A stretch of 41,096 nucleotides of DNA from Spirochaetaceae bacterium (GTDB lineage: Bacteria; Spirochaetota; Spirochaetia; Treponematales; Breznakiellaceae). Under the pieces are notes generated by a model, which worked only from the letters and a program-made list of their open reading frames with translations, searched no databases and was not told where the DNA came from. Positions 1 to 16,386 of the stretch are shown piece by piece; position 1 is the first letter of the stretch, and every line of letters starts with the position of its first letter. The position numbers and the translations under genes are program-made. The stretch is taken from contig JAISCK010000033.1 in assembly GCA_031265635.1 (NCBI GenBank), positions 1 through 41,096 on the forward strand. Reading direction: 5' to 3'.

Positions 1-45
1 TCGGGGCGGTAAAGCCCCGATACGACTTCAACAGAGGAGGACAAG

Positions 46-1065
46 ATGAGAGCTGCGATTATGGGTGTCGGCTCGCTGGGTACAATTCTTGGCGCCTACA
101 TTTCAAAAGCCGGAAAGCAAATTGATTTGATTGATGTCTATGAGGATCATGTAAAGGCCCTGAATGAAAAAGGGGCCCATGTAACGGGGCCCGTTGACTT
201 TACCGCCCCGGTTACGGCGTTGACCCCAAGCCAGATGGAAGGGAACTATGACCTTGTTTTCTTTATGGTTAAGCAGACCTACAATGATTCCGCTATCGCG
301 GCGTTAAAACCCCATGTTCATGATGCCACGATTATCGCGACCCTTCAGAACGGCCTCCCCGAGCCGGCCATAGTTGACGTGTTTGGAGCCGATAGGGTCA
401 TGGGCTGTACCGTGGGCTGGGGCGCCACCTTTAAGGGTCCGGGGCTTTCGGAACTTACCACCACGCCAGACAAGCTGACCTTTGACCTTGGGCGGGTCGA
501 TAACCGTATTACCCCGGAACTGGATGTGGTAAAGGGCTATCTTGAATGTATGGGCCCCACGGTCATCGTTGATAATCTCATGGGAATCAGGCTGACCAAA
601 CTGCTGGCCAACGCGACCTTCAGCGGCATGTCCGCTGTCCTGGGCTGCGCCTTTGGGGATGTTCTTGACAATGATCAGGCTCTTTTGTGTATAAAGTTTC
701 TTGCCAATGAATGTATCTCCGTGGCCAAAGCCGCCAATATCAGGATGGAACCCATCCAGGGCAATGATATGGGTAAGCTCCTGGCTTTTACAACCAAGGC
801 GGAACAGGACGCCACGACGCCGGTTTACCACAAGATGTGGGGCGCCCACCGGGCAACAAGGGCCAGCATGCTGCAGGACCTGGAAAAGGGCCGGAAATGC
901 GAGATTGGCGCCATAAACGGGGCGGTATGCGCCATGGGCGATAAATACGGGGTGGATACCCCGGTAAACGATCAGGTTGTGGAGATAGTCAGGAGCATAG
1001 AAAACGGCAGCCGGAAGCCGGTCTTTGACAACCTGAAACTGCTTAAACTCCCTGAAATCCGTTGA
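46..1065 (+). CDS. Ketopantoate reductase (PanE/ApbA) family NAD(P)H-dependent 2-oxo/2-hydroxy-acid oxidoreductase
   Basis: N-terminal Rossmann motif IMGVGSLGTILG. Length (339 aa) and overall pattern are typical of the ApbA/PanE family. GAGGAGG lies 5 nt upstream of the ATG. Confidence 0.8.
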   Translation: MRAAIMGVGSLGTILGAYISKAGKQIDLIDVYEDHVKALNEKGAHVTGPVDFTAPVTALTPSQMEGNYDLVFFMVKQTYNDSAIAALKPHVHDATIIATLQNGLPEPAIVDVFGADRVMGCTVGWGATFKGPGLSELTTTPDKLTFDLGRVDNRITPELDVVKGYLECMGPTVIVDNLMGIRLTKLLANATFSGMSAVLGCAFGDVLDNDQALLCIKFLANECISVAKAANIRMEPIQGNDMGKLLAFTTKAEQDATTPVYHKMWGAHRATRASMLQDLEKGRKCEIGAINGAVCAMGDKYGVDTPVNDQVVEIVRSIENGSRKPVFDNLKLLKLPEIR

Positions 1066-1116
1066 GCGTAAGGGCCGCTTGCGAATCTATAACTTCGCCC
1101 TGAAAGGAGAACATAC

Positions 1117-2457
1117 ATGGAATTTATTGGTATTCTTGGAATGTTGATTGCGATTGCCATAATGATAATTGGCGCATACCGGGGCCTTCAGGCCATCCCC
1201 CTTACCATACTGGCGGCACTGGCGGTTATTTTTACCAACGGCCTTCCCCTCTGGGACACCTTTGCCAAAATCTATGCATCGGGATTCGGAGGGACCATCA
1301 CGGCCTATTTCTTTATCTTTGTGTCATCCGCGGTATATGCCCTCATTATGGAAAAAACCGGATGCGCCGCGGCTATAGGGTACAAGTTCATTGACTGGTT
1401 CGGTACCAAATATGTCATGCTGGTCAGCCTGTTGTTTGTATCGGTCCTTACCTACGGCGGGGTCAGCCTCTTTGTGGTGATCTTTGCCACCATGCCCATA
1501 CTCTTCCTTTTATTTAAGGAAGCGGGGCTTCCCCGGCACGCGATCTTTGCCCCCTTGGTGGCGGGTTCTTCGGCCTATACCATGACCACGTTGCCGGGTA
1601 CCCCGGCGCTGACCAATGTTATCCCCTCCCAGTTTCTGGGAACCCCAATGACCGCCGCGCCTGTATTCAGTATTATTCTCGGGATTGTGTTCTTTCTTCT
1701 CTGCTACGGGTACTGTCTGCTTGCCGAAAAGCAATGTAGAAAAAAGGGGGAAGTCTGGTCCTACCCGGAGAGTTACGATGCGGCCGCCCTGGAAGTTGAC
1801 CGGAGCAAACTGCCCAAAGCGGGAATCGCCTTTACCCCGATTGTGGTACTGATTGTATTTATCGTTGGAAGTTCCCTGTTAAAACTTCCCTATGCCGCCG
1901 ACGCCGCCCTGCTTACCACCCTGGCCATGCTCATCGCCACCATACTCTGCATCGTGATGAACCTTGGCAGGCTCTCGGTGAAGGGGGTCAAGGATATGAT
2001 AGGCAAGGGTTCCCTTAACGGCATTTCCGCCATCGTCGGCCTTGCCGCGGTAGTGGCCTTTGGGGGAGTGGTGTCTTCTTCCCCGGCCTTCAAGAGCATT
2101 GTGTCCTGGGTGCTGGGCCTTAACATGAGCGCCTACTTTAAGGGAGTATTTTCCACTGGGGTTATTGCCGGTATCACCGGTTCTTCTTCCGGCGGCGTGC
2201 GTATCATGCTCCAGAGTATCGGGGACTATCTTATCCAGTCCGGGGCTAATCTGGAAGTTATGCACCGGCTGGTCGCCGTAGCCGCCGGGTCCCTGGATAC
2301 CCTGCCCCATTCGCCGGGTATCTTCCTGACGATGGCCATGCTGGGTTTGACCCACAAAGAAGCGTACAAGCATATTTTCTGGACCACTGTAGGAATACCC
2401 ACAGTGCTGGTTATTGTCGCGACGGCTATAGCTACTGTAGTGTGGCCTGTAGCGTAA
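1117..2457 (+). CDS. Polytopic ion-transporter-superfamily permease (GntP/CitMHS-like organic acid transporter)
   Basis: 446 aa, hydrophobic throughout with about 12 predicted helices and a central hydrophilic loop (QCRKKGEVWSYPESYD). AAAGGAGA RBS. Family assignment is by resemblance only. Confidence 0.6.
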   Translation: MEFIGILGMLIAIAIMIIGAYRGLQAIPLTILAALAVIFTNGLPLWDTFAKIYASGFGGTITAYFFIFVSSAVYALIMEKTGCAAAIGYKFIDWFGTKYVMLVSLLFVSVLTYGGVSLFVVIFATMPILFLLFKEAGLPRHAIFAPLVAGSSAYTMTTLPGTPALTNVIPSQFLGTPMTAAPVFSIILGIVFFLLCYGYCLLAEKQCRKKGEVWSYPESYDAAALEVDRSKLPKAGIAFTPIVVLIVFIVGSSLLKLPYAADAALLTTLAMLIATILCIVMNLGRLSVKGVKDMIGKGSLNGISAIVGLAAVVAFGGVVSSSPAFKSIVSWVLGLNMSAYFKGVFSTGVIAGITGSSSGGVRIMLQSIGDYLIQSGANLEVMHRLVAVAAGSLDTLPHSPGIFLTMAMLGLTHKEAYKHIFWTTVGIPTVLVIVATAIATVVWPVA

Positions 2458-2479
2458 AAAGGACACGTTGTGTTCCCAG

Positions 2480-2508
2480 GGGTGCGCATAACGATATTAC
2501 GCGCACCC
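2480..2508 (+). other. Intercistronic stem-loop (8 bp GC-rich stem, 13 nt loop) between the permease and BKACE genes
   Basis: gggtgcgc (2480-2487) pairs with gcgcaccc (2501-2508). No U-run follows, so it is more likely an mRNA processing or stability element than a terminator. Confidence 0.4.
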
Positions 2509-2539
2509 GCTTATCAACAATATTTAGAGAGGAATCAAA

Positions 2540-3367
2540 ATGCCTAAAACTATTATTTCCGTGGCCACGACCGGCGCATGGCCGACTAAAAAAGACAACC
2601 CCAATGTCCCCCTGACTCCCAAGGAGATAGCGGAGGATGTGTTTGCGTGTTACGAGGCGGGCGCCGCCATTGCCCACCTGCATATGCGGGATGACAACGG
2701 CGCCGGTACCATGGACATCAATAAATTCAGGGAAACCGTCAAATTGATCAAAGCCCGCAAGGATATTCCCATTGTGCTGAACCTGACCACTTCCGGGGCG
2801 GCAAACGCCTCCGACGAAGTCCGTATGGCCCACATTAAAGAACTGGAACCCGAACTTGCCTCCTATGACTGCGGCTCCATGAACTGGATGCACGTGGCGG
2901 TCTTCCTGAATACTCCACCGTTTCTGGAGCAGTTGGGAAATGTTATGCAGGAACACAATATCAAACCGGAGATAGAAATCTTTGACGCCGGTATGGTATA
3001 CAACGCCCTCTATTATCTCAAAAAAGGAGTGCTAAAGGCGCCGCTGCATTTCCAGTTTGTATTGGGCGCTGCCGGAGGAATGGCCGCTACCATAGAGAAT
3101 CTGGTATTCCTCAAGAGCCTTATTCCCTCTGACTGTACCTGGGCCGCTCTGGGTATAGGAAAAGGCCATATCCCCATTCTGATGGCCACCCTGGCGCTGG
3201 GAGGGCATCTGCGGGTCGGGATGGAAGACAATGTTATGTACGGTCCCGGCCAATTGGCGGAATCCAATGCCCAACTGGTCAAAAGGGCCGCGGACTTTAT
3301 CCGCCTTGCGGGTAACGAAGTCGCTACCCCCGCTGAGGCAAAACAGATTCTGAGTATTACCCGTTAA
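2540..3367 (+). CDS. Beta-keto acid cleavage enzyme (BKACE / 3-keto-5-aminohexanoate cleavage enzyme family, DUF849)
   Basis: 275 aa TIM-barrel-sized protein. N-terminus IISVATTGAWPTK. Metal ligands H46-x-H48 (AHLHMRD) and a Glu in HLRVGMEDN sit as in characterised Kce. Confidence 0.85.
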   Translation: MPKTIISVATTGAWPTKKDNPNVPLTPKEIAEDVFACYEAGAAIAHLHMRDDNGAGTMDINKFRETVKLIKARKDIPIVLNLTTSGAANASDEVRMAHIKELEPELASYDCGSMNWMHVAVFLNTPPFLEQLGNVMQEHNIKPEIEIFDAGMVYNALYYLKKGVLKAPLHFQFVLGAAGGMAATIENLVFLKSLIPSDCTWAALGIGKGHIPILMATLALGGHLRVGMEDNVMYGPGQLAESNAQLVKRAADFIRLAGNEVATPAEAKQILSITR

Positions 3368-3401
3368 AGCAGTCTTTTGCAGCCGTTAGACGAAAGATGT
3401 A

Positions 3402-3474
3402 GTGGCCGGCCGCAGAGCGAGCGACTTTGCGGTCGGCCGCTAATTAGAAAGCCCGGACATTCTCAAGATGTCCG
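3402..3474 (+). other. Two adjacent stem-loops in the 150 nt BKACE-SDR spacer
   Basis: An imperfect ~16 bp hairpin at 3402-3440 (gtggccggccgcagag / ctttgcggtcggccgc) and a 7 bp hairpin at 3454-3474 (cggacat / atgtccg). Confidence 0.4.
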
Positions 3475-3517
3475 AAAACAACCGGGTTTGAAACCGGCTT
3501 ACAAGGGAGAAAATTCT

Positions 3518-4258
3518 ATGGGGAATCTGGCCGGCAGGTACGCGGTAGTTACCGGAGGAGCTAAAGGCATAGGCAGGAAGGTCGCGGAACGCTTTTTGCG
3601 GGATGGCTGCGCGGGAATAGCCATCCTCGATTATGACAGGGAAACAGCGGAAAAAACCTCGGCTGAATTGGGGTCTTTGGTGATTCCGGTCCATTGCGAT
3701 GTAAGCAGCAAAGAAATGGTTGAAAAAGCCTTTCAAACGGTATACGAAAAATTTCCCCGCGTTGATATCCTGGTGAATAACGCGGGGCTTACCAGGGATG
3801 CCATGCTGCACAAGATGAGCCTTGAACAGTGGCTTACCGTTATCAATGCCGACCTGACCGGCATATTTCTCTGCATGCAGCAGGTGGTAAAAGCTATGCG
3901 GGAACAGTGTTATGGAAAAATTGTCAATGTTTCTTCTACTTCGGCCTACGGTAATCCGGGGCAGGCCAATTATTCCGCGGCCAAGGCGGGCATACTTGGG
4001 CTGACCGCTACCACAGCCAAAGAGCTGGGGCGGAGGAATATCACTGTTAATGCCGTTGCCCCTGGTTTTATTGATACCGATATTATTAAAACCGTTCCCC
4101 CGGAAACCCTGGAGCAGTGGAAGCAGAACATTCCCATGCAGCGTCTTGGCCGACCTGAGGAAATCGCCGATGTGATTGCTTTTTTGTCCAGTGATCAATC
4201 GAGTTATGTTACCGGCTGCTGCATCCCCTGCTGCGGGGGCGGCATCATAGAATTCTAG
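3518..4258 (+). CDS. Short-chain dehydrogenase/reductase (FabG-like 3-oxoacyl / 3-hydroxyacyl oxidoreductase)
   Basis: TGGAKGIG cofactor motif, NNAG, and catalytic YSAAK. I chose the ATG at 3518 (AAGGGAGA RBS) over the track start at 3377, whose 47 aa extension is Arg-rich and covers the hairpins. Confidence 0.85.
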   Translation: MGNLAGRYAVVTGGAKGIGRKVAERFLRDGCAGIAILDYDRETAEKTSAELGSLVIPVHCDVSSKEMVEKAFQTVYEKFPRVDILVNNAGLTRDAMLHKMSLEQWLTVINADLTGIFLCMQQVVKAMREQCYGKIVNVSSTSAYGNPGQANYSAAKAGILGLTATTAKELGRRNITVNAVAPGFIDTDIIKTVPPETLEQWKQNIPMQRLGRPEEIADVIAFLSSDQSSYVTGCCIPCCGGGIIEF

Positions 4259-4276
4259 AGGAGAATAATAAACATC

Positions 4277-5389
4277 ATGCAGGAATTTACAGTACTGGCA
4301 CTGAATCCCGGTTCCACTTCCAGTAAGATAGCGGTTTTCCGGGAACAACAGGCATTGCTTGTCGAAAATGTCAGTCATGACGGCCGTTCAGTTGATTTGC
4401 GGGATTTTGAAGACCAGGTAAAGACCCGTAAGGGTTGGATAATGAAAGCCCTGGAAGAAAAAAACATAAGTCTTTCTGATATTGACGCCTTTGTGGGCCG
4501 GGGCGGGGGGATGAGACCCTGCCTCTCCGGTACCTATGAAATCACCCCTAAAATGCTGGAACAGGTTCAGGCCAACCCGTTGATCCATCCCGCAAAATTT
4601 GCCCCCAGGATAGCCTATGAATTTGCCCAGAGCAGCGGCAAGAAGGCGTATACGGTCAATTCCGCCCATACCGATGAATTTGAACCTGAGTCCCGGATAT
4701 CGGGTATTGCGGGGATTGAGCGCACCTCTATCGTACACACGCTGAACCAAAAGGAAGTGGCCATCCGGGCTGCCGGGGAACTGGGCAAAAAATATCAGGA
4801 AGCGAATTTTGTGGTAGCCCACCTCGGGGGAGGTATTTCCGTTGCCGCCCACAAAAAGGGCAGAATGATAGACGGTACTAACACCATGACCGGGGACGGG
4901 CCCATGAGTCCCAATAGATGCGGGCAGGTAGACGCCCTCGATATGATTGATCTGTGTTTTTCAGGCAAATATTCAAAACAGGAGATGCGGGAACTTGTGA
5001 TGACCCAGGGGGGCTTTATGAGCCTTCTGGGTACCGCCGACGGTAAATTGATAGAAGAAAAGATAAAAGAAGGGGATGCCTATGTAAAACTGATTTTTGA
5101 CGCCATGTGTCATCAGATCGCCAAAGCCATTGGGTCCATGGCGGCGGTACTGGAGGGGGATGTCCAGGGAGTGATCCTCACCGGGGGTACTGTCCGGAAT
5201 CCCTACGCGGTGGAAGCAGTAACCCGTAAGGTTAAATTTATCGCTCCGGTATTTGTTTATCCCGGAGAGTTTGAGATGGAGGCCCTTGTTAATGGGGTTC
5301 TCAGGGTGCTTCATGGTGAGGAGCAATCCATGGTTTATACCGGGATTCCCATCTGGGGTGGTCTGCCTCCACGGAAGCCGTTAAAATAA
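4277..5389 (+). CDS. buk: Butyrate kinase family (short-chain acyl kinase, ASKHA fold)
   Basis: N-terminus VLALNPGSTSSKIAVF, internal VVAHLGGGISVAAH and ILTGG motifs. 370 aa, typical for Buk. Confidence 0.85.
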   Translation: MQEFTVLALNPGSTSSKIAVFREQQALLVENVSHDGRSVDLRDFEDQVKTRKGWIMKALEEKNISLSDIDAFVGRGGGMRPCLSGTYEITPKMLEQVQANPLIHPAKFAPRIAYEFAQSSGKKAYTVNSAHTDEFEPESRISGIAGIERTSIVHTLNQKEVAIRAAGELGKKYQEANFVVAHLGGGISVAAHKKGRMIDGTNTMTGDGPMSPNRCGQVDALDMIDLCFSGKYSKQEMRELVMTQGGFMSLLGTADGKLIEEKIKEGDAYVKLIFDAMCHQIAKAIGSMAAVLEGDVQGVILTGGTVRNPYAVEAVTRKVKFIAPVFVYPGEFEMEALVNGVLRVLHGEEQSMVYTGIPIWGGLPPRKPLK

Positions 5390-5407
5390 AAGCGAAGGAG
5401 TATTGAC

Positions 5408-6574
5408 ATGAAACAGGAATTGCGAGATGTGGTTTTGGTCGCCTATGGCAGGGCTCCCATAGCCAAGGCCAAAAAAGGCAGTTTTGCGGATATTCATCCC
5501 GCTACATATGGGGCTGAAACCCTGAAAGGAGTTTTAGCCAGAGTACCTTCCCTTAATCCTTTGAAAATTGATGATGTGATTGTAGGCTGCGCCATGACCC
5601 AGGGCGTACAGAGCGGTAACTTTGCCAAAACCATCGTACTCCGGGCCGGTCTGCCCGATTCAGTACCGGCCATGACGATTAACCGGTATTGTTCCTCAGG
5701 GCTCCAGGTTATTGCCCTGGCGGCAAACGGTATTGCCACGGGGCAGCATGATGTGGTAGTGGCCGGCGGAGTTGAAAGCATGAGCAGGGTTTCCATGCTG
5801 GAACAACCGGAAGACCGGGATACGGAACTGGAGGCGGCCCGGCCTGGCGCTTATTTTAATATGGGGATCACCGCGGAAAATGTGGCGGAGAAATACAACA
5901 TCAGCCGGCTTGAGATGGAGCAAATGGCGGTGGAAAGCCATGCCAAAGCTGATGCCGCCCAAAAAGCCGGTGTCTTTAAGCGTGAAATCATCCCCGTTAC
6001 GGTAAAAGCCCCTGGCGGTACCCGGCGGACTGTTGCCGCGGACGAGGGGATCAGGGCCGGGACAAACCTGGCGGCCCTTGCGGAACTGAAACCCGCGTTC
6101 CGGGAAGATGGGCGGGTTACCGCCGCGACTTCCTCCCAGATGAGCGACGGCGCCGCTTTTGTGGTACTCATGTCCGCGGAAAAAGCGGCGGACCTGAAGC
6201 TGAAGCCTCTTGCCCGGCTGGCAGGTTTTGCCGTAACAGGGGTTGCCTGCGAAATCATGGGTATCGGCCCTATTGCGGCGGTGCCCAAAGTATTGGCCCT
6301 GACAGGGATGAAACTGGATGATATTGATGTGATTGAACTGAATGAAGCCTTTGCCGCCCAGGCCATCCCCTGCATCCGGGAACTGGGACTGGACCCCAAA
6401 AAGGTGAATCCCCGGGGCGGAGCCCTGGCTCTTGGGCATCCTCTGGGCGCGACCGGTACGATACTCACCTGTAAGGCCCTGTCATATCTGGAAGATACGG
6501 GCGGAAAATACGCCCTGGTAACCATGTGTATCGGAGGGGGCATGGGCGCCGCCGGTATTATCGAAAAACTGTAA
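5408..6574 (+). CDS. Acetyl-CoA C-acetyltransferase (thiolase II)
   Basis: Nucleophile Cys in NRYCSSGLQ, His in GHPLGATG, C-terminal CIGGGMG. 388 aa. Confidence 0.9.
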   Translation: MKQELRDVVLVAYGRAPIAKAKKGSFADIHPATYGAETLKGVLARVPSLNPLKIDDVIVGCAMTQGVQSGNFAKTIVLRAGLPDSVPAMTINRYCSSGLQVIALAANGIATGQHDVVVAGGVESMSRVSMLEQPEDRDTELEAARPGAYFNMGITAENVAEKYNISRLEMEQMAVESHAKADAAQKAGVFKREIIPVTVKAPGGTRRTVAADEGIRAGTNLAALAELKPAFREDGRVTAATSSQMSDGAAFVVLMSAEKAADLKLKPLARLAGFAVTGVACEIMGIGPIAAVPKVLALTGMKLDDIDVIELNEAFAAQAIPCIRELGLDPKKVNPRGGALALGHPLGATGTILTCKALSYLEDTGGKYALVTMCIGGGMGAAGIIEKL

Positions 6575-6586
6575 AGACGCATACGA

Positions 6587-6616
6587 AAACAACATGGCTC
6601 TTTAGTCATGTTGTTT
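6587..6616 (+). terminator. Probable terminator of the BKACE operon
   Basis: 10 bp stem aaacaacatg / catgttgttt with a 10 nt loop, followed by the T-rich cttgttg. It lies 13 nt after the thiolase stop. Confidence 0.45.
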
Positions 6617-6643
6617 CTTGTTGCAAAATGTTTTGCGGTTTTC

Positions 6644-6687
6644 AGCGGAAGTTGTTTTGAAATCGAAGTTTTCGCGCAACTTCCGCT
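6644..6687 (+). other. 11 bp stem-loop immediately upstream of the MBL gene RBS
   Basis: agcggaagttg (6644-6654) pairs with caacttccgct (6677-6687), with a 22 nt loop. The AGGAGA RBS follows at 6693-6698. Confidence 0.4.
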
Positions 6688-6705
6688 AATACAGGAGAAT
6701 TTTCT

Positions 6706-7530
6706 ATGGCGTCATGGACAATTAAATCTTTATATTATGGAAAGATTACTGTTCCTAAAGGTAATTTAGCTTCTGGTCTTGATCCAGATTTAATTATTGA
6801 TTTTCCATATATGGGGTATTTACTGCAAAATGGAAAACAAAATATTCTGGTTGATACCGGTATTCATGAAGACAATATTATTGACGGAAAAGCCTGGGGC
6901 GGGTGCCCTGCCCAGGGCGGCAGGAAATATGTCATTGAGGCATTGGAAAAAGAGGGGTTAAAACCTCAGGATATTGATACGGTTCTGTATACCCATTTAC
7001 ACAATGACCATGCAGGCGGCGCCTCTCTTTTCCCAGAAGCCAGGACCTGGTTTCAAAAAGACGAATTAACAAATCTGCTTAATCCGCTTCCGACGCAGAA
7101 GATACGATCTGATTTTGACAAACGAACTCCTGATGACTTAAAGTTGCTCAAAGATGTCTATATAATCGATGGTGATATGGTTTTGCCAAATGGACTTGAG
7201 CTTTATAAACTCCCTGGCCATACATCCGGCTCTATGGCGATTGTGGTTCCAACGGCCAAAGGCAGATATGTTTTGACCGGAGATATCCCTCACTTGGGAA
7301 TCTCACTTTTCCCAAAACTCGATAGAATGGAATTACTGGGAGGCTCGGTCATAGATATAACGCCCGCCCCTGATATTATGATGCCGTATCTTTTTAATAG
7401 TGTCATTTATGATCATTATGCGGCTTTTGACAGCTACAATAAACTCAAGGCCCTTGCCGAGGAATTTACGCCCCAATGGTATCTTACCGGTCATGACTGT
7501 TGGATTATTAATAGGAACTTCTTTGGGTAG
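6706..7530 (+). CDS. Metallo-beta-lactamase-fold hydrolase (lactonase-like)
   Basis: HxHxDH zinc motif as HLHNDHAGG, and a downstream PGHTSG. 274 aa. The gene is conspicuously AT-rich. Confidence 0.8.
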   Translation: MASWTIKSLYYGKITVPKGNLASGLDPDLIIDFPYMGYLLQNGKQNILVDTGIHEDNIIDGKAWGGCPAQGGRKYVIEALEKEGLKPQDIDTVLYTHLHNDHAGGASLFPEARTWFQKDELTNLLNPLPTQKIRSDFDKRTPDDLKLLKDVYIIDGDMVLPNGLELYKLPGHTSGSMAIVVPTAKGRYVLTGDIPHLGISLFPKLDRMELLGGSVIDITPAPDIMMPYLFNSVIYDHYAAFDSYNKLKALAEEFTPQWYLTGHDCWIINRNFFG

Positions 7531-7575
7531 CGCAAGCTCCATCTCGATGAAACCGGCTTAATTACGGAGGTTTTT

Positions 7576-8484
7576 ATGAAATTGGCGACTATACGATACA
7601 AAGGTACAGTATATGCCGGTGTTATCAGGGATAATGATTTTATCGCCCTTTCAGCGCTTGACCGGCAGCTTCCAGGTACCATGCTGGAATTAATAGAAGG
7701 GTGGATCGGGTATAAGCCCCTAATCGAGAAAAACATCGGCAGTGCGGAGACGTTATGCGCCATGGAAGAAGCCGAGTATCTTCCTCCCCTGCCGAATCCC
7801 CGTTCCTTTCGGGACTTTATGGGATTTGAAGAACACTTTGTAACGGTAAAAAAGAAGGCGGGAAGAAAAATCGTTGATGAATATTACCAGATGCCGGTTT
7901 TTTATTTTTCAAATCACCAGGCCCTGAGAGCTTCGGGCGAACCTGTCGCGGCGCAGCCGGACACGGAACAATGGGATTTTGAATTTGAAATCGGATTTAT
8001 TATTGGGAAACAGGGGATAAATATTCCGGCTTCACGGGCAATGGAATATATTTTTGGCTATACGATTCTTAACGACTGGTCCGCCCGGGACATACAGGTA
8101 AAGGAACAAAAGGTCGGCCTTGGCCCCGCCAAAGGCAAGGACTATGCCACATCTATCGGTCCGGTTATTGTAACCCGCGATGAACTGGACGCCTGTCTCC
8201 GCAAAGATGATCCGTCCAGATATGATCTGGCGACCAAACTTACCCTGAACGGCAGGGTTCTTAGGGAAAACAACATCAAATCAATCTTGCACCCTTTTTC
8301 TTCCATGATTGAACGGGCTTCCAAAAATGTCTCCCTGTTTCCCGGCGAACTCTTTGGCTCAGGAACCCTCGGCGGAGGCACAATCCTCGAATATTCCAAT
8401 GAGGAGGTTCCCTTTTTAAAATCAGGCGATACCATTCTGATGGAAGTTCAGGGTATCGGTGTTTTAAGGAACATTGTCGCGTGA
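7576..8484 (+). CDS. Fumarylacetoacetate hydrolase (FAH) family enzyme (hydrolase / decarboxylase / isomerase)
   Basis: 302 aa. The pattern FEFEIGFIIGK ... GYTILNDWSARD ... GPAKGKD is typical of the FAA_hydrolase C-terminal domain. GGAGG RBS. Confidence 0.8.
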   Translation: MKLATIRYKGTVYAGVIRDNDFIALSALDRQLPGTMLELIEGWIGYKPLIEKNIGSAETLCAMEEAEYLPPLPNPRSFRDFMGFEEHFVTVKKKAGRKIVDEYYQMPVFYFSNHQALRASGEPVAAQPDTEQWDFEFEIGFIIGKQGINIPASRAMEYIFGYTILNDWSARDIQVKEQKVGLGPAKGKDYATSIGPVIVTRDELDACLRKDDPSRYDLATKLTLNGRVLRENNIKSILHPFSSMIERASKNVSLFPGELFGSGTLGGGTILEYSNEEVPFLKSGDTILMEVQGIGVLRNIVA

Positions 8485-8489
8485 AGCCC

Positions 8490-9839
8490 TTAATCCCCTG
8501 TATCCAGGTTTCGCAGATATTCAAGATACTCATTTACTGTTCTTCTTTCGAAGTCAAAAACCAGCGCCGCAAGATCATCCCTCCTTTTCTTATCAAGGCC
8601 CGCCTGTGATAAAGAGTTGAATTTCCAAACCAATTCTTCATCGTCAGGCCGCTCCCATTGGGTAAGTTCATGCTTCAGGTGGCTGCCGTTTTTAAGATAA
8701 ATTTCGACTACGGCCCCCCTTGTTCCCCAGGGGCCGTCTCCGTAGGCTTCGTTTTTTTCAACGTGTATCTTTTTACGCAGGGAAAGGTATTTTTCGTTTG
8801 TCAGGTTCTCCATGAAGAAAGCCTGGGGCATAAGATGGCCTTCCGTCAGGGCAAAGGCCGCCGTATACGAAAGAGAGAGCCGGGCGGAAGAAGGGTTAAG
8901 ATTCTCTCCGGCGCCCTGGTGAAGGGAATACGCATACGGATAGGTAGAGATGGTTAGCGATGCAATGTCCTCCGTCATTATGGGTGATTGGCGCCGCAGT
9001 TCAAGTATGGCGCTTACGGCAGGATGGACTGACTGGCAGGCGGAAAAGCGCTTGAAAGCCGCGCTGTCGATTAAATAGGGCTTTCCAAAGTCCGTATCAT
9101 CCTTGCCGCAAAAAATACCGGATAATGATTTTACCCCGTCCAGAATATGAGATGGTCCGGTGATTCCCCTTTTGGCGCTCTCGACAGCCAGCATGGCAAG
9201 ATATACGCCCCAGCCGCCGTAAAAATCTTTGGCGTCGCTGCCTTCAATAAAACTGATAAAAGGGCAGAGCGGAAGCAGCGCCCCGGTGATGCCAAAGACA
9301 TTGCATAACTGGTCAACGGAAAGCCCCGCAACAAGGCCGGCGGAAGCGGCGGCGCCAAACCCGCCTACAAGGCCGGGTCCATGGAGCCCCAGTTCCCGCG
9401 CTTTGAATGCCGCCATTGCCCCCAGCCTTGAAACAACATCGTAGCCAAAGATGATGCCGCGAAGCAGGCTGGCAGGGCCGCTGTTGTTTTCTTCCGCGGC
9501 AGCCAGCGCCGCCGAGATAACATATACTCCGGGATGGGCGGTCCCTGCGGGAAAATAGTCGTCCATTTCAATATTTGAAGTGCGGAGTGAATTGGCAAAG
9601 GCGGCCAGCGCGGGAGAAGTTTTGTTTTTGGAACCCCAGATGCTTGCACGGCCTCCTGTTCCTCCAAGACTTTCTATAAGATCAATGATTTTTGGCGTGA
9701 GTCTGCCGGCGGCGGAAAAGACCGCGCATCCTGTATAATCAAGAAGGCATCGTTTGGCCTGATGAAGCGTTTCCCGGTCAAAATCGCTCAATTCCAGGGA
9801 ATAGAAATGCTCCGAAATATTTCTGAAAAAGTTTTTCAC
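8490..9839 (-). CDS. MmgE/PrpD family protein (2-methylcitrate dehydratase superfamily), copy 1
   Basis: 449 aa. N-terminal LLDYTGCAVFSA-type motif and overall PrpD-like pattern. GTG start at 9839. Last gene of the minus-strand operon. Confidence 0.8.
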   Translation of the reverse strand: MKNFFRNISEHFYSLELSDFDRETLHQAKRCLLDYTGCAVFSAAGRLTPKIIDLIESLGGTGGRASIWGSKNKTSPALAAFANSLRTSNIEMDDYFPAGTAHPGVYVISAALAAAEENNSGPASLLRGIIFGYDVVSRLGAMAAFKARELGLHGPGLVGGFGAAASAGLVAGLSVDQLCNVFGITGALLPLCPFISFIEGSDAKDFYGGWGVYLAMLAVESAKRGITGPSHILDGVKSLSGIFCGKDDTDFGKPYLIDSAAFKRFSACQSVHPAVSAILELRRQSPIMTEDIASLTISTYPYAYSLHQGAGENLNPSSARLSLSYTAAFALTEGHLMPQAFFMENLTNEKYLSLRKKIHVEKNEAYGDGPWGTRGAVVEIYLKNGSHLKHELTQWERPDDEELVWKFNSLSQAGLDKKRRDDLAALVFDFERRTVNEYLEYLRNLDTGD

Positions 9840-9860
9840 CCGTTCTCTCTCAGGACTCTT

Positions 9861-10820
9861 TCAGGCGAGCCCGTTAATTTCCCGCACATAATGACACGCC
9901 GCAAAGTGGGCGGGAAATATTTCTTCGAGTACGGGGTATTCGGCGAAACATTTGTCCGTCGCGTAATCACAGCGGGCGGCGAAACGGCAGCCGGGCTTTG
10001 GCTCGATAGGGGAGGTAAGTTCCCCTTTAAGCAGTATCCGCCTCCTGCCGCTGTGGACGACCGGTTCTGGAATGGCGGCCAGCAGGGCCTTTGAATACGG
10101 ATGAAGCGTCTTTTCAAAGAGTTCGTCAGAGCCGCTTATTTCGGCGGTCATGCCAAGGTACATAACCATAATATCATCGGAGATATGCTTGACCACCGAA
10201 AGATTATGGGTGATAAACATATAGGTAAGTCCCTTGGCGTCCTGGAGATCCTGCATTAAATTTAATATCTGGGCCTGTATTGACACGTCAAGGGCCGAGA
10301 CAGGTTCATCACAAACAATAAATTTGGGCTGGAGAACCAGGGCCCTGGCTATGCCGATGCGCTGTCTCCTCCCTCCGTCAAGTTCATGGGGATAGGAATT
10401 TTCAAAGCGCTGCGCCAGCCCCACGGTATCCATAATTTCCGAGAGCTTATTGAGGACCTCCTTGCCGCTCCGGTACATATTATGAATTATCATCGGCTCT
10501 ATGATGGTTTCCTTGACGGTCATCCTGGGATTCAAGGATGAATAGGGGTCCTGAAAAATGATCTGCATGCGGCGTTTAAGATCATTGCTGTGTTTTTTAT
10601 TTGTTATTTCTTCTCCTTCAAAAAAGATGCTTCCTTCAGTGGCGTCAAGGAGACGTATAACAAGCCTGCCCAGGGTTGATTTTCCGCATCCTGATTCGCC
10701 TACCACGCCGAGGGTTTTTCCCTGGTTAATGGAAAACGAAAGTCCGTCAACCGCGTGCAGCATCCCGTGGGGAGTGCGAAAATATTTTTTTAGGTTTTTT
10801 ACTTCAAGAAAAGCTCCCAT
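9861..10820 (-). CDS. Opp/Dpp-type ABC transporter ATP-binding protein (OppF-like)
   Basis: Walker A GESGCGKST, signature ELDGGRRQR, Walker B FIVCDEP, and a C-terminal Cys-rich oligopeptide_C tail (GCRFAARC..DKC). Confidence 0.9.
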   Translation of the reverse strand: MGAFLEVKNLKKYFRTPHGMLHAVDGLSFSINQGKTLGVVGESGCGKSTLGRLVIRLLDATEGSIFFEGEEITNKKHSNDLKRRMQIIFQDPYSSLNPRMTVKETIIEPMIIHNMYRSGKEVLNKLSEIMDTVGLAQRFENSYPHELDGGRRQRIGIARALVLQPKFIVCDEPVSALDVSIQAQILNLMQDLQDAKGLTYMFITHNLSVVKHISDDIMVMYLGMTAEISGSDELFEKTLHPYSKALLAAIPEPVVHSGRRRILLKGELTSPIEPKPGCRFAARCDYATDKCFAEYPVLEEIFPAHFAACHYVREINGLA

Positions 10821-10835
10821 AATAATCCCTCCAGG

Positions 10836-11795
10836 CTAGTAAAGCAGACAGCGGACAAAATGTCCCTGAGAGACTTCCCGGTTTTCCGGTATGACAGTTT
10901 CACATTCAGGTTTTTTATCCTTGCAGCGGGTATGAAAGGCGCAGCCTGAAGGCAGATTGACAGGATCGGGCATGAGGCCGTATATGGGATTGAGACGGTG
11001 GATTTTCCCGGTCAGTTTCGGCAGTGAACCGAACAGGCCCTTTGTATAGGGATGACAGGTGTTGTTGTAAATATTTTCGAGGCTGCCCTTTTCGACAATG
11101 TGGCCCGCATACATGATGGCCACTTCATCGCATATTTCAGCGACTATGCCAAGGTCATGGGTAATAAGGATCATGGCGGTCTTGTATGTCTCCTGGAGTT
11201 GTCTCATCAATTCCAGTATCTGGGCCTGAATCGTAACATCAAGGGCCGTCGTCGGTTCATCGGCGATTATCATCTGCGGGTTACAGGCCAGGGCGATTGC
11301 TATCACGACCCGCTGTTTCATTCCTCCTGAAAACTGATGCGGGTATTCCCCCATGCGGTCGGAAGGGATTCCGACTATCTCAAGCATCCGGGCGGATTTC
11401 TTTTCGGCTTCCAGCCTGGAAGCCTTGTCATGGAGCCGTATTGCTTCGGCAATCTGTTCCCCTACGGTAATGACGGGGTTAAGCGAAGTCATGGGATCCT
11501 GAAAGATCATGGATGAATTTTTACCCCGGTGAAAGCGCATCTGCATCTTGTTGTATTTTAGAAGATTTTTTCCGTTAAAATAAATTTGTCCTGATACGAT
11601 TTTTCCGGGAGGGTCAGGAATAAGGCGCATCAGGCCCAGGGCAGTGGTGGTTTTTCCGGCGCCTGTCTCTCCCACAAGGCCGAGGGTTTTACCTTTTTCC
11701 AGGTCAAGGCTGATGCCGTTGACCGCCTTGACAGTTCCGTCGTCGGTAAAGTAGTGAATGACAAGATCTTTGACTGTCAAAAGTTTGGTATCCAT
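10836..11795 (-). CDS. Opp/Dpp-type ABC transporter ATP-binding protein (OppD-like)
   Basis: Walker A GETGAGKTT, signature FSGGMKQR, Walker B MIIADEP. I chose the start at MDTKLLTVKDL (11795); the track extension to 12107 overlaps the upstream permease gene. Confidence 0.9.
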   Translation of the reverse strand: MDTKLLTVKDLVIHYFTDDGTVKAVNGISLDLEKGKTLGLVGETGAGKTTTALGLMRLIPDPPGKIVSGQIYFNGKNLLKYNKMQMRFHRGKNSSMIFQDPMTSLNPVITVGEQIAEAIRLHDKASRLEAEKKSARMLEIVGIPSDRMGEYPHQFSGGMKQRVVIAIALACNPQMIIADEPTTALDVTIQAQILELMRQLQETYKTAMILITHDLGIVAEICDEVAIMYAGHIVEKGSLENIYNNTCHPYTKGLFGSLPKLTGKIHRLNPIYGLMPDPVNLPSGCAFHTRCKDKKPECETVIPENREVSQGHFVRCLLY

Positions 11796-11803
11796 GGCGT
11801 ATC

Positions 11804-12682
11804 CTATTTCTTGAGTTTTGGATCCAGCGCGTCGCGCAGTCCGTCGCCAAAGAGATTCAGCGCCAGAACCGTTATCATTATCGCCAGTCCGGGAAAGGCG
11901 ACCATGTACCACTGATCCCTGATAAAGGTCCGGGCCGATGAAAGCATGGCGCCCCATTCCGGCGTGGGAGGCTGAATGCCCAGGCCGAGAAAACTCAGCG
12001 AGGCGGCAAGTATTATGGCGGTTCCCACTCCCAGCGTCGCCTGTACGATAATGGGCGCCATGACATTGGGAAATATATACCGGATGATTATACGGGCATG
12101 GCTGCATCCTATGGCGCGGGCGGCCTCAACATATTCCTGGTCTTTTACCGTAAGGGTCGAAGCCCTGACCACCCGGGCGAAATTTGGTATTGAACTTACG
12201 GCTACGGCTATCATGGCATTGGCAAGGCCGGGGCCGAGGGTTGTGGCTATGGCTATGGCAAAGATCGTACGGGGAATGGACATAAGTATGTCCGTTATCC
12301 GCATGATAATAGTATCCGCAAGACCTCCGAAAAACCCCGCGATGGCGCCGAGTATGCTGCCTGAGAGGGCTCCAACGGAAAGGGAAATAAACCCTATGAG
12401 CAGCGAGATCCTTGTGCCGTATATTACGCGGCTCAGTATGTCCCTGCCAAAATTATCGGTCCCCATGGGATGTTTAAAAGAAGGAAACTGGGAAGTGCTG
12501 GAATAGTCCTGGAGATCATAGGGATAGGGGGCGATAAAGCCGGCGAAAACAGCGAGGAGTATCAAAAGAGCGAGCATGACAAGGCCCCATACGGCAAGTT
12601 TGTTGCGGCAGAGCCTGCGCCAGATGTCGCGGAATTGGCCGTGTTTTCTGAGAACGGTCCCCGGAGAGGTTTCCTTACGCAT
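11804..12682 (-). CDS. Opp/Dpp-type ABC transporter permease (OppC-like)
   Basis: 292 aa, six predicted TM segments, BPD_transp_1-type pattern. Overlaps the upstream permease gene by 8 nt. Confidence 0.9.
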   Translation of the reverse strand: MRKETSPGTVLRKHGQFRDIWRRLCRNKLAVWGLVMLALLILLAVFAGFIAPYPYDLQDYSSTSQFPSFKHPMGTDNFGRDILSRVIYGTRISLLIGFISLSVGALSGSILGAIAGFFGGLADTIIMRITDILMSIPRTIFAIAIATTLGPGLANAMIAVAVSSIPNFARVVRASTLTVKDQEYVEAARAIGCSHARIIIRYIFPNVMAPIIVQATLGVGTAIILAASLSFLGLGIQPPTPEWGAMLSSARTFIRDQWYMVAFPGLAIMITVLALNLFGDGLRDALDPKLKK

Positions 12683-13661
12683 TGTTTGGCGCCTCCTTCT
12701 CCGTTTCGGTCAGGGAAGTCTTGTGTTCCCTGCGGCGCGCGTACAGGGATCTGATACGGGGATCGACAAACGCGTATAAAAGGTCTATGAACAGGTTGAG
12801 AAAACTGAACATAAACGCTATGACGAGAACGCCGCCCCTGATGATGGGATAGTTCCGCGCTTTAATCGCGTCTACCATGAGCTTTCCGAGACCAGGAATC
12901 GCGAATATCTGTTCGTTCACAACAGCGCCGCTTAAAGCGCTGGCGAACTGTATGCCGATAACGGTGATGATGGGTATGAGTGCGTTTTTCAGGGCGTGCT
13001 TGAAAATTATCGAAGTTTCGCTCTTGCCTTTTGCCCTGGCTGTCCGTATGTAATCCTGGCGTATAACTTCCAGCATGCTTGAACGGGTCATGCGGGTTAT
13101 TGTCGCGATGGATACGGCGCTTATGCTGATAACCGGCATTATGTAATACAGGGCCCCGTACAATCCCGACGCCGGCAGCAGTCCCAGGCTTACCGAAAAA
13201 AACAGAATCAGTATGAGGGCCAGCCAGAAGTTGGGCATGGAAATGCCCAGCAGGGCCAGGACCATGGCGATATTGTCAAGAAATGAATACTGCCTGACCG
13301 CCGAAAGTATACCGAAGGGGATTCCTATAAGCATGGCAAAGATCATGCAAAAAACCGAAAGTTTGATGGTTACAGGCAGCCTGTTTTGTATCTCGGTGAG
13401 TACGGGCAGGCCGTTGGTAAAGGAGGTCCCCAAGTCTCCGCGGAAAAGGCCTTTAAGATACCGGAAATACTGGGTAAAGAAAGGATCGTCCAGGCCCATC
13501 TCGGCCCTCAGCGCGATTACTTCTTCCTGGGTTGCAAAATCGCCCAGCATAAGCTGCGCCGGGTCTCCCGGAGTAAAGAACATCATCGCAAAGATAATAA
13601 AGGTTACTCCCAGCAGTACCGGAATGGTGATGAGTATACGCTTAACTATATACCGCAACAT
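12675..13661 (-). CDS. Opp/Dpp-type ABC transporter permease (OppB-like)
   Basis: Classic N-terminus MLRYIVKRILITIP and an EAA-like loop (YIRTARAKG). Start set at 13661 because AGGAGAGG lies 6 nt upstream. Confidence 0.9.
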   Translation of the reverse strand: MLRYIVKRILITIPVLLGVTFIIFAMMFFTPGDPAQLMLGDFATQEEVIALRAEMGLDDPFFTQYFRYLKGLFRGDLGTSFTNGLPVLTEIQNRLPVTIKLSVFCMIFAMLIGIPFGILSAVRQYSFLDNIAMVLALLGISMPNFWLALILILFFSVSLGLLPASGLYGALYYIMPVISISAVSIATITRMTRSSMLEVIRQDYIRTARAKGKSETSIIFKHALKNALIPIITVIGIQFASALSGAVVNEQIFAIPGLGKLMVDAIKARNYPIIRGGVLVIAFMFSFLNLFIDLLYAFVDPRIRSLYARRREHKTSLTETEKEAPNNA

Positions 13662-13706
13662 GATTGACCTCTCCTTACACAACAAATCGGCAATTTTTTA
13701 CTTAAA

Positions 13707-13741
13707 GCCGGACGCCGGGAGGCCGCTCCCGGACATCCGGC
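13707..13741 (-). other. Intercistronic GC-rich stem-loop between the binding-protein and permease genes
   Basis: gccggacgccggga / tcccggacatccggc form a ~13 bp stem with one bulge and a 6 nt loop. No U-run follows on the transcribed strand. Confidence 0.5.
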
Positions 13742-13752
13742 ATAGAAAGACC

Positions 13753-15273
13753 TCAGTTTGTAAAACGTATTTTGGTGAGGTCGGGAACTCCCGACGGATT
13801 AAATTCAAAACCCGTAATATTCGCGTTAAGTCCGTACGCGAACTCGGGGAACGCTCCGGGAATAGCGTAGCATTTCTCATAGAGGTAATCCATCATATCC
13901 TCATACACTTTTGCCCGCCTGGCGGTATCGTATTCCCTTGCGCCGGCGTCAAGAAAATCCTGTATCTTCTGGTCTCCGTGGCGCAGGGATATGGTACGGG
14001 TAATGGGCCAGATATAGAGGGCCGCCGAAGGATCGGCCATGGCGGTACTGGGATTCATGTACGCGACGGGGATCTGGCCGGTATTGTTCATCGAGGTATA
14101 CGATGCAAGGTCGATGATGTTTACATGGGCTTTGATTCCGGCCTGGGACCACATGCTCTCCAGCACTTCGGCAACAGCCATGTATATCTGGTTCTCGTAG
14201 GTGTAGTACTGGAATTCGATGCCGTTGGGATAACCCGCTTCGGCAAGAAGCTGTTTTGCCTTTTCAGGATCGTAGGGCCTGGGGCCGACTTTCTTGTACC
14301 CCAGGAGGCCGGGAACCATAAAGGAATCGGCGACCTGGGCGGTTCCCTGGTACACTGTTTGTACCAGGGCGTCGAGGTTCAGGGCGTAGGCCATAGCCTC
14401 CCGGACCCTGATATCTTTGAACAGGTCAAATGAAGAGTTCATAAAGATTGTTGAGGTCTGCAGGGAAACCCCTTTTACAAGCTGGGTGTTTTTGCCGTTG
14501 GCAATCCTGTCCCAGTCCGAGGGGGACATATCAAAGGCATAGTCAATGCCGCCTGTTTCAAGCTCTATGGTCCTTGACGCGGCCTCGACAATAACACGGG
14601 CATTAACATTCTTAAAGGGAAGTTGTTCGCCCCAATAGCCGTCATAAGCGCTGAACTCGATGCGGTCGCCTGAAACCCACTGGACAAATTTCATGGGGCC
14701 TGTTCCCACGGGAGCCCTGCCGAAGGCTTCGGGCGTAGTCGCTTCGTACAGTTTTTTGCTGACTATGACCGCCCGGTAAGAGGCCAGCGCCTCAAAGAGC
14801 GGCGAGTAGGGATACTTGAGTTTTATCTGAATAGTATAATCGTCAATAACCCTGGTGGCGTCTCCGTCAATGGCGCCGAAGATAACGCTGTTAAAGGTAC
14901 TTGTGGCAAGCTGGGTAAGGGAGAATTTGACATCCTCGGCGGTCATCTTGCTGCCGTCATGAAAGGTAACATCATCCCTGAGCTTGAAGTCGAAAGTTGT
15001 GGGATCAATCTGGGTCCACTCTTTGGCAAGCCGGGGAAGGAAGGTCTCATTGGGCCCTTTGGTAATGAGGGTTTCAAAGATAAGGGTCGCAACGGTAAAT
15101 CCATACATGTGGGAATGGGAATAAGGCGCCAGTGTCTGGGGCTCATTCGTCATTGCCACTACCAGGGTTTCTTTCTGCGCCGGCTGTGGTTTTTTTGACC
15201 CGCCGCAGGCGCTAAATACCAAAAGCACACATCCTGCCAGTATTGCCGCCTGAATAAATCGTTTACTCAACAT
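13753..15273 (-). CDS. ABC transporter substrate-binding lipoprotein, family 5 (OppA/DppA/NikA class)
   Basis: Signal peptide with lipobox MLSKRFIQAAILAGCVLLVFSAC. About 500 aa mature, SBP_bac_5-like. Start at 15273 has AAGGAGG 6 nt upstream. Confidence 0.9.
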   Translation of the reverse strand: MLSKRFIQAAILAGCVLLVFSACGGSKKPQPAQKETLVVAMTNEPQTLAPYSHSHMYGFTVATLIFETLITKGPNETFLPRLAKEWTQIDPTTFDFKLRDDVTFHDGSKMTAEDVKFSLTQLATSTFNSVIFGAIDGDATRVIDDYTIQIKLKYPYSPLFEALASYRAVIVSKKLYEATTPEAFGRAPVGTGPMKFVQWVSGDRIEFSAYDGYWGEQLPFKNVNARVIVEAASRTIELETGGIDYAFDMSPSDWDRIANGKNTQLVKGVSLQTSTIFMNSSFDLFKDIRVREAMAYALNLDALVQTVYQGTAQVADSFMVPGLLGYKKVGPRPYDPEKAKQLLAEAGYPNGIEFQYYTYENQIYMAVAEVLESMWSQAGIKAHVNIIDLASYTSMNNTGQIPVAYMNPSTAMADPSAALYIWPITRTISLRHGDQKIQDFLDAGAREYDTARRAKVYEDMMDYLYEKCYAIPGAFPEFAYGLNANITGFEFNPSGVPDLTKIRFTN

Positions 15274-15301
15274 ATACATCCTCCTTAAAAATTGCATATA
15301 T

Positions 15302-16381: not shown

Positions 16382-16386
16382 AATTC

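Follow-up and report, generated by a model that had tools for sequence, protein, structure and literature searches.

Anaerobic breakdown of phloroglucinol is a funnel that carries flavonoid and tannin carbon into fermentation, in guts and in peat, and its enzymes were named only in 2023. In Clostridium scatologenes the pathway leads from PGR, a short-chain dehydrogenase/reductase (SDR), through DPGC, a member of the Pfam Cyclase family, and TfD, of the 3HCDH family, to a triacetate acetoacetate-lyase, TAL (Zhou et al., mBio 2023, PMC10470551). This last enzyme, CsTAL, is a BKACE that converts 3,5-dioxohexanoate (triacetate) and acetyl-CoA into acetoacetate and acetoacetyl-CoA; its distinguishing mark is Trp16 in the place of Glu14 of the lysine-fermentation enzyme Kce, and the set of proteins induced by phloroglucinol includes a thiolase and a butyrate kinase (PMC10470551). 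Here we analyse a gene cluster around a BKACE in a Spirochaetaceae bacterium (GenBank assembly GCA_031265635.1, contig JAISCK010000033.1), taking as our window the whole 41,096-nucleotide contig (C254, 1-41096), one of the 257 contigs of a 1.98-Mb genome bin that is 72% complete. We consider it rather probable that the cluster encodes a lower phloroglucinol-type route in which a transporter supplies a C6 hydroxy acid and a TAL-type BKACE is the central enzyme.

Gene content, homology, residue conservation and synteny were computed; we infer every substrate and every reaction direction. Like the pathway of C. scatologenes, the locus sets a thiolase and a butyrate kinase alongside a BKACE of the same kind, and would take a C6 beta-keto acid to acetoacetate and a C4 acyl-CoA, and from there to acetyl-CoA and ATP. 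Unlike that pathway, it would feed the BKACE through an NAD-type dehydrogenase of the ketopantoate reductase (KPR) family and a probable GntP-family permease, and it adds an NAD-type FabG-like SDR and genes for an MBL-fold and an FAH-superfamily protein. Searches of the 72%-complete source genome revealed none of PGR, DPGC, TfD and CtfAB, and the relatives of the cluster are under sigma-54 activators.

The BKACE groups with TAL

The window BKACE scores 347.8 bits with PF05853 (cut-off 24.8), and the match spans positions 1-273 of the 274 in the profile. Aligned over its full length (275 residues) with CsTAL, which was recovered as A0A0E3M5J5 by exact cluster look-up, it shows 69% identity and 84% similarity, and W14 stands opposite W16, in the column where the Glu14 of Kce binds the 5-amino group of its substrate. 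Residues H46, H48 and E229 align with the zinc ligands His46, His48 and Glu230 of Kce (2y7d), and E146 with its catalytic Glu143; Arg226 and Asp231 of Kce are likewise taken as functional residues. The conserved set in the window protein thus comprises H46, H48, E146, R225, E229 and D230, and the metal ligands are intact, as a first-pass annotation of this DNA had stated.

Conservation was counted over 86 members of the clade, among them the BKACEs of complete PGR-TfD-DPGC clusters. The window protein matches every invariant or near-invariant column, namely W14, P15, H46, H48, T83, T84, S85, S108, D110, N115, W116, E146, F148, D149, Q172, R225, E229, D230 and N231; H46, H48 and E229 occur in all 86 sequences and E146 in 85. 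In the tree it is nested in a tight clade with the 90%-cluster mates of CsTAL and with the BKACEs of 13 complete PGR-DPGC-TfD-TAL clusters, and different gene contexts are intermixed on short branches.

The identity to CsTAL, W14, the shared active-site columns and the position in the clade together place the BKACE, by sequence, in the TAL group, and its predicted reaction is the cleavage of triacetate with acetyl-CoA. The PF05853 search and group assignment proposed by the first-pass annotation therefore end at the TAL type, and its view that the substrate was open is not supported, given the relationship to CsTAL and the Trp in the Glu14 column. That annotation had also raised the case of a characterised group whose context matches the operon. 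Here the group, that of CsTAL, and the presence of thiolase and butyrate kinase agree, and the upstream enzymes PGR, DPGC, TfD and CtfAB are the part that was not found.

NF053538, an equivalog model of 310 positions for 3,5-dioxohexanoate:acetyl-CoA transferase, gives the window BKACE 216 bits against a cut-off of 430, and the BKACEs of complete phloroglucinol clusters fail it as well (221-222 bits); scores for those of loci L016, L061, L084 and the window lie at about 205-222 bits, and none reaches 430. Since CsTAL-like BKACEs of complete clusters fail it, the model covers a different BKACE lineage. In public records every member of the clade, CsTAL too, carries the name '3-keto-5-aminohexanoate cleavage protein', an annotation gap that wrongly points to lysine fermentation.

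Proposed route for a C6 hydroxy acid

We propose that a free C6 hydroxy acid would be imported by the GntP-family permease, that the NAD-type PanE-like dehydrogenase, replacing TfD, would turn its 3-hydroxyl group into a beta-keto acid, and that the BKACE would move the C1-C2 unit onto acetyl-CoA, giving acetoacetate and acetoacetyl-CoA, or 3-hydroxybutyryl-CoA if C5 is hydroxylated. The SDR would interconvert 3-hydroxybutyryl-CoA and acetoacetyl-CoA, the thiolase would yield two acetyl-CoA, and ATP would be gained through butyrate kinase and a phosphotransacylase, which relatives encode just upstream of the point at which our contig breaks. The downstream lactonase-like MBL and FAH-family genes may act as accessory feeders or bypasses. 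The general logic of the first-pass annotation, from import and oxidation to BKACE cleavage, thiolase and kinase, is upheld, and the six genes that it listed are present on the plus strand (Table 1).

As the imported acid we tentatively prefer 3-hydroxy-5-oxohexanoate, which would be oxidised to triacetate. A less probable candidate is 3,5-dihydroxyhexanoate, which would pass through 5-hydroxy-3-oxohexanoate to 3-hydroxybutyryl-CoA. This second acid would explain why an enzyme that handles 3-hydroxyacyl-CoA accompanies the window locus and at least three of the other five loci with a linked PanE-like gene or its remnant: the SDR in the window and in L111, an Hbd-like protein at C189 and in L004, and MaoC in L026.

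The PanE-like protein, proposed as a non-orthologous stand-in for TfD in NAD-dependent hydroxy-acid oxidation, scores 177 bits against TIGR00745 (cut-off 141) and reaches no equivalog cut-off in the NCBIfam scan. Its residues K185, N189, S274, D278 and E286, which we take to be the catalytic columns of E. coli ketopantoate reductase, show no variation among the six aligned PanE-like sequences. All four aligned BKACE-linked copies end beta2 with Leu/Val-Ile/Val-Asp, of NAD type (for example LID), and unlinked spirochaete homologues end it with Thr-Arg-Asn, of NADPH type; Thr-Arg is the NADPH type of biosynthetic ketopantoate reductases. The beta2 region of the window copy comprises residues 22-30 (window 109-135). 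The NAD-type cofactor loop of the BKACE-linked copies fits a catabolic dehydrogenase.

The permease has no direct match in Pfam or NCBIfam even at E<=10. Compared with GntP clusters in the Atlas it reaches a feature score of 0.98 and a TM of 0.95, and PF02447 is matched by 37 of its 46 aligned phmmer homologues, though not by the protein itself; it is probably a divergent GntP-family permease. A copy 50% identical to it adjoins a PanE-like gene and a BKACE in the Fusobacterium locus L026.

For the SDR, the evidence points to CoA esters. Its open reading frame begins with TTG at 3377, and its domain begins about 50 residues in; a plausible start is the ATG at 3518, behind the ribosome-binding site AAGGGAG, which sets the spacer to the BKACE gene at 150 nt. 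The protein is closest to NADH-type FabG and acetoacetyl-CoA reductases (best PDB match 4nbu, 230 bits), with the loop LDYD, carrying an NAD-type Asp, at the end of beta2. With the PGR-like SDRs from complete phloroglucinol clusters it shares only 27% identity, and the NADPH motif of PGR is TR(S/N) (PMC10470551). No orthologue was found in the 80 genome loci described below (identity <=40%), and relatives at 67-70% identity lie within CoA-transferase-SDR-(Hbd)-thiolase blocks. The enzyme most likely acts on 3-hydroxybutyryl-CoA/acetoacetyl-CoA and is probably not a second substrate-level dehydrogenase. Both dehydrogenase genes that the first-pass annotation had named are present.

The two remaining enzymes have counterparts in L111 and L084, clusters that both include Ptb. 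Identity to the L111 and L084 proteins is 85% and 60% for the butyrate kinase, and 91% and 72% for the thiolase.

Table 1. Features of the BKACE cluster in the window
Feature	Position	Strand	Basis
Contig end, small hairpin (tcggggc..gccccga) and ribosome-binding site of the first visible gene	1..45	+	Sequence read
PanE/ApbA-family (ketopantoate-reductase fold) dehydrogenase, 339 aa	46..1065	+	PF02558, PF08546, TIGR00745
Probable divergent GntP-family organic-acid permease, 446 aa	1117..2457	+	Structure match and homologues
BKACE, triacetate acetoacetate-lyase (TAL) type by sequence, 275 aa	2540..3367	+	PF05853, CsTAL comparison
Hairpin-rich BKACE-SDR spacer, 150 nt, without U-tract	3368..3517	+	Minimum free energy -60 kcal/mol, z -4.8
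FabG/PhaB-like SDR, NAD type, 246 aa	3518..4258	+	PDB 4nbu, cofactor loop, neighbourhoods
Butyrate kinase, 370 aa	4277..5389	+	TIGR02707 384.1 bits, equivalog cut-off 289.1
Thiolase (acetyl-CoA C-acyltransferase), 388 aa	5408..6574	+	PF00108, PF02803; TIGR01930 431 bits, cut-off 240
Terminator-like hairpin with U-rich tail, 3' of the thiolase gene	6579..6624	+	-21.1 kcal/mol, z -4.9
MBL-fold, lactonase-like hydrolase, 274 aa	6706..7530	+	PF00753; weak AiiA and pyridoxolactonase-like matches
FAH-superfamily protein, 302 aa	7576..8484	+	PF01557 166 bits; other PDB/NCBIfam matches distant

Gene neighbourhoods of related BKACEs

We compared 80 species-representative loci whose BKACEs are 64-75% identical to that of the window. 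PGR, TfD and DPGC are all present at 13 of them, and two of the three at another five. About 35 combine a sigma-54 activator and the BKACE with a TfD-like gene, PGR and DPGC being absent within 10 kb; a further 19 pair a different cyclase-family hydrolase, of 256 aa, with an SSF symporter, mostly also with a thiolase, and lack a dehydrogenase. A PanE-like gene is found at three (L004, L026 and L065), besides both BKACE loci of the source genome.

The TfD-TAL modules (Sedimentibacter, Fusibacter, Sporomusa, Treponema and others) share with the window a BKACE of the same clade and the combination of an importer, a hydroxy-acid dehydrogenase and a BKACE without ring-opening genes, and these roughly 35 loci may serve as a precedent for a transporter-fed route. 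They differ in that their dehydrogenase, unlike the KPR-family one of the window, is a 3HCDH-type enzyme sharing 56-72% identity with the TfD-like gene from a complete phloroglucinol cluster, and in that their transporter, where annotated, belongs to PF02667, whereas PanE-linked modules have GntP or SSF transporters. In the two annotated TfD-type loci an AtoE-type transporter follows the TfD-like gene. We found no experimental characterisation of these modules in the literature.

The trio of BKACE, PanE-like gene and transporter recurs four times, at C189, L004 (a Spirochaetaceae metagenome-assembled genome, MAG), L026 and L065 (a deltaproteobacterial termite-gut MAG). The first of these is a paralogous module of the source genome itself (locus L003, contig C189, 4633-10831), with a BKACE (71%), a PanE-like gene (43%; 6418-7437) and an SSF symporter on the minus strand behind an exact sigma-54 -24/-12 box, TGGCACAGTTCTTGCA, at 8344-8329; divergent from them lie genes for a PAS-AAA+ activator and a near-threshold 3-hydroxybutyryl-CoA dehydrogenase (399.5 bits, cut-off 408). 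The genome holds two paralogous modules, one with a probable GntP-family permease and an SDR presumed to be of (R) type, in the window, and one with an SSF symporter and an Hbd presumed to be of (S) type, at C189. In L026 (Fusobacterium sp. PH5-44, 2721-16548) a PanE-fed and a cyclase-fed module are adjacent, each with its own BKACE: the former encodes, beside the BKACE, a PanE-like protein, a GntP-like permease, a MaoC hydratase, CtfA and CtfB, and the latter a BKACE, an SSF symporter, a sigma-54 activator, a thiolase and a cyclase.

Among closer relatives, L086 comes from a different metagenome and matches window 704-4067 colinearly, with 92.7% nucleotide identity. In L111 (2382-12376) a sigma-54 activator stands before the series cyclase-SSF-Ptb-(PanE/permease remnant)-BKACE-SDR-Buk-Thl-FAH, with 82-88% nucleotide identity to the window and protein identities of 92% (BKACE), 84% (SDR), 85% (Buk), 91% (Thl) and 86% (FAH). 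The remnant (6243-6775) fuses PanE residues 1-65 to permease residues 292-389, as left by a deletion, but Ptb, BKACE, SDR, Buk, Thl and FAH on either side of it are whole, which implies that the ancestral cluster carried both a cyclase-fed and a PanE-fed entry. L084 (8543-16789) has the order BKACE-cyclase-SSF-Ptb-Buk-Thl-MBL; its BKACE, Ptb, Buk and Thl genes share a strand and follow one sigma-54 promoter-like box.

The nearest relatives of the window BKACE (83-92%), like those of its Buk, Thl, MBL and FAH, lie in cyclase-fed modules, which in L084 and L111 also pair Ptb with Buk. Unlike the window, these modules have no dehydrogenase at the entry. Their 256-aa hydrolase is only 26-29% identical to DPGC and would have to supply the beta-keto acid directly; direct hydrolysis of phloroglucinol or of a pyrone is our guess. 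Cyclase-fed modules (L084, L111 and the 19 loci, for example L006, L008, L009 and L020) are sigma-54-controlled, with an SSF symporter of about 655 aa.

Alternative explanations

A true Kce of lysine fermentation is what database names would suggest. The homologues are so named, the best PDB match is Kce 2y7d, and the best NCBIfam match is Lys_ferment_KCE (NF052387); the window protein also shares with Kce the TIM-barrel BKACE family, the zinc ligands, the catalytic Glu and the type of reaction. We regard this identity as extremely improbable, however, because its 305.6 bits fall short of the equivalog cut-off (382), Trp takes the place of the amine-binding Glu14, and kamA, kamDE, kdd and kal are absent from the window, which, as first noted, contains neither lysine-fermentation nor carnitine genes. 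Genome-wide, the only trace is a sub-threshold match to LAM_C (PF12544, kamA) on another contig. More serious, though still unlikely, is a supply of generic short- or medium-chain 3-hydroxyalkanoates from polyhydroxyalkanoates, such as (R)-3-hydroxyvalerate or (R)-3-hydroxyhexanoate: the PanE-like enzyme would form the 3-oxo acid, the BKACE would release acetoacetate and propionyl- or butyryl-CoA, and Ptb and Buk would draw ATP from butyryl-CoA. On this account Trp in the Glu14 column signals only that the substrate is not an amine, the butyrate kinase has an immediate use, simple acids suit GntP- and AtoE-type transporters, and a genome scan without ring-opening genes is as expected. What speaks for the C6 route instead is that a BKACE 69% identical to CsTAL keeps all the conserved pocket columns common to complete phloroglucinol clusters and that the phloroglucinol-induced set also includes a butyrate kinase; 3-hydroxyalkanoates, moreover, leave the FAH and lactonase-like genes, and the cyclase-family hydrolase of the relatives, without an obvious role.

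The cluster might also be a complete phloroglucinol pathway made of non-orthologous parts, with the SDR as PGR, the MBL protein standing in for DPGC, the PanE-like enzyme for TfD and the BKACE as TAL. PGR is indeed an SDR and DPGC a metal hydrolase, candidates for all four reaction types lie on one strand, and the sample comes from a termite gut, rich in polyphenols. We nevertheless find this improbable: the low identity of the SDR to PGR, its LDYD loop in place of the NADPH motif and the location of its close relatives among CoA-transferase, Hbd and thiolase genes all count against it, and the MBL gene occurs beside a cyclase-family hydrolase in L084 and L073, is absent from L111 and has homologues in unrelated contexts. 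A different objection is that PanE-permease-BKACE and SDR-Buk-Thl are two neighbouring modules, the second serving ordinary butyrate/acetoacetyl-CoA metabolism. The 150-nt, hairpin-rich gap between the BKACE and SDR genes, the lack of an SDR orthologue in the 80 loci and the fact that the smallest recurrent unit elsewhere consists of a transporter, a PanE-like gene and a BKACE make this conceivable. We judge the split doubtful all the same, as L111 retains BKACE-SDR-Buk-Thl and L086 retains BKACE-SDR up to the end of its contig, L084 has BKACE, Ptb, Buk and Thl on one strand behind its single promoter-like box, no -24/-12-like box lies in the interior of the window cluster, and a thiolase with an acyl-CoA dehydrogenase would use exactly the products of the BKACE. 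We predict that these genes are co-transcribed.

Several points weigh against the lower phloroglucinol-type route itself. The only CsTAL substrate reported is triacetate (PMC10470551), and the specificity of the window BKACE is predicted from its 69% identity and its conserved residues. At 74-77 the protein departs from the consensus of the phloroglucinol clusters by a two-residue insert, and at 87/88 it has Ala-Ala where that consensus has Asp-Leu, nearer to the Ala-Val of Kce. To our knowledge, no KPR-family enzyme oxidises a beta-hydroxy acid, and PanE-like homologues at 42-48% identity in three other spirochaete genomes have unrelated neighbours (GATase, MFS, and a glycyl-radical enzyme with its activase), which therefore give no clue to a substrate. 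The SDR would be superfluous if acetoacetyl-CoA is the direct product of the BKACE. No Ptb/Pta, CoA-transferase or second acetate kinase was found in the 72%-complete assembly, nor any PF04199 gene or orthologue of PGR (best matches 27-28%) or TfD (36%), and the genes found do not account for a source of the C6 acid. At this completeness, missing PGR, DPGC and TfD matches are no proof of absence.

Limits of the cluster and downstream genes

The first-pass annotation had described a six-gene operon closed by a terminator. A hairpin with a U-rich tail, UUUCUUGUUG directly after the stem, does follow the thiolase gene, although the consensus terminator scan did not list it. Beyond it, however, the MBL and FAH genes continue on the same strand, so that eight plus-strand genes are visible between 46 and 8484, and the 5' side runs into the contig end. 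The six-gene set is thus the visible middle of a larger catabolic cluster of at least eight genes, and probably of 11 or 12 in all. Because base 1 of the window is also base 1 of the contig, the 5' boundary of the operon is out of sight; region 1..45 has no visible promoter, and from base 21 the window aligns with the Ptb-PanE spacer of L111. Exact -24/-12 boxes precede the first gene in L111, L084 and L003, and a scan of the window found none upstream of any of its eight genes, which puts the transcription start beyond base 1. By analogy with these relatives, Ptb, the SSF symporter, the cyclase-family gene and the sigma-54 activator probably lie there too. None of the four was found on another contig of the assembly: a search for the upstream genes and DNA of L111 gave only unrelated sigma-54 activators and a 68-nt match on C113 without visible meaning.

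The hairpins of the BKACE-SDR spacer are unique in the genome; their stems are kept with base changes in L086, and the spacer of L111 is unrelated. Very stable hairpins without a U-tract also occur on the other side of the BKACE gene (2458-2539). An Rfam scan of 1-9000 at E<=1 returned only a chance snoRNA-like match and none for the hairpin spacers. A conserved regulatory RNA in the BKACE-SDR spacer was ruled out, as the spacer is not conserved in L111.

The MBL and FAH genes are probably accessory genes of the cluster. An MBL copy 80% identical lies 3' of the thiolase gene in L084, and one of 79% adjoins a BKACE in L073; an FAH copy 86% identical lies 3' of the thiolase gene in L111. MBL homologues at 66-82% identity occur in varied contexts, one behind a sigma-54 activator with genes for an SSF symporter and an Fe-ADH, so the linkage of MBL and BKACE is only local. 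Fumarylacetoacetate is itself a 3,5-dioxo acid, and for that reason an FAH-family protein suits a 3,5-dioxo acid chemically; the protein is possibly a beta-diketone hydrolase. The lactonase-like MBL enzyme could supply the acid from a lactone or pyrone. The G+C content of the MBL-FAH pair is lower (0.45, compared with about 0.52), and a termite-associated Ruminococcaceae genome encodes a protein 82% identical to the MBL one, which suggests recent exchange between phyla in the gut.

The remainder of the window consists of unrelated units, with two PrpD-family genes, an Opp-type transporter, a LacI regulator, an EPSP-synthase gene, flavin reductases and UvrA, among others. Its DNA is present near-entire in one termite-gut metagenome run, and among the listed sequencing runs positions 1-8500 were found in termite-gut metagenome DNA runs only, with no RNA run.

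Discussion

Neither the enzyme family nor the reaction nor the downstream genes are new. The replacement of TfD by a PanE-like enzyme, the GntP-type importer and the SDR, MBL and FAH companions were not described in the literature that we searched. We put forward, as a speculative extension, that a KPR-family enzyme has been recruited as an NAD-dependent beta-hydroxy-acid dehydrogenase, a previously undescribed entry to the triacetate/TAL node, and that the two modules of this genome may differ in the stereoisomer or oxidation state that they accept of a free, polyketide-like C6 acid, either 3-hydroxy-5-oxohexanoate or 3,5-dihydroxyhexanoate. If this is true, 3,5-dihydroxyhexanoate may come from lactones via the MBL enzyme, with the BKACE turning its oxidation product into 3-hydroxybutyryl-CoA, and members of the termite-gut community would exchange ring-opened intermediates of polyphenols or pyrones.

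More broadly, TAL emerges as a hub served by at least four upstream modules: PGR-DPGC-TfD; TfD, with an AtoE-type transporter where annotated; a cyclase-family hydrolase with an SSF symporter; and a PanE-like dehydrogenase with a GntP or SSF transporter. Such a pattern points either to cross-feeding on intermediates of ring opening or to additional substrates, for example pyrones and lactones, in insects that feed on wood.

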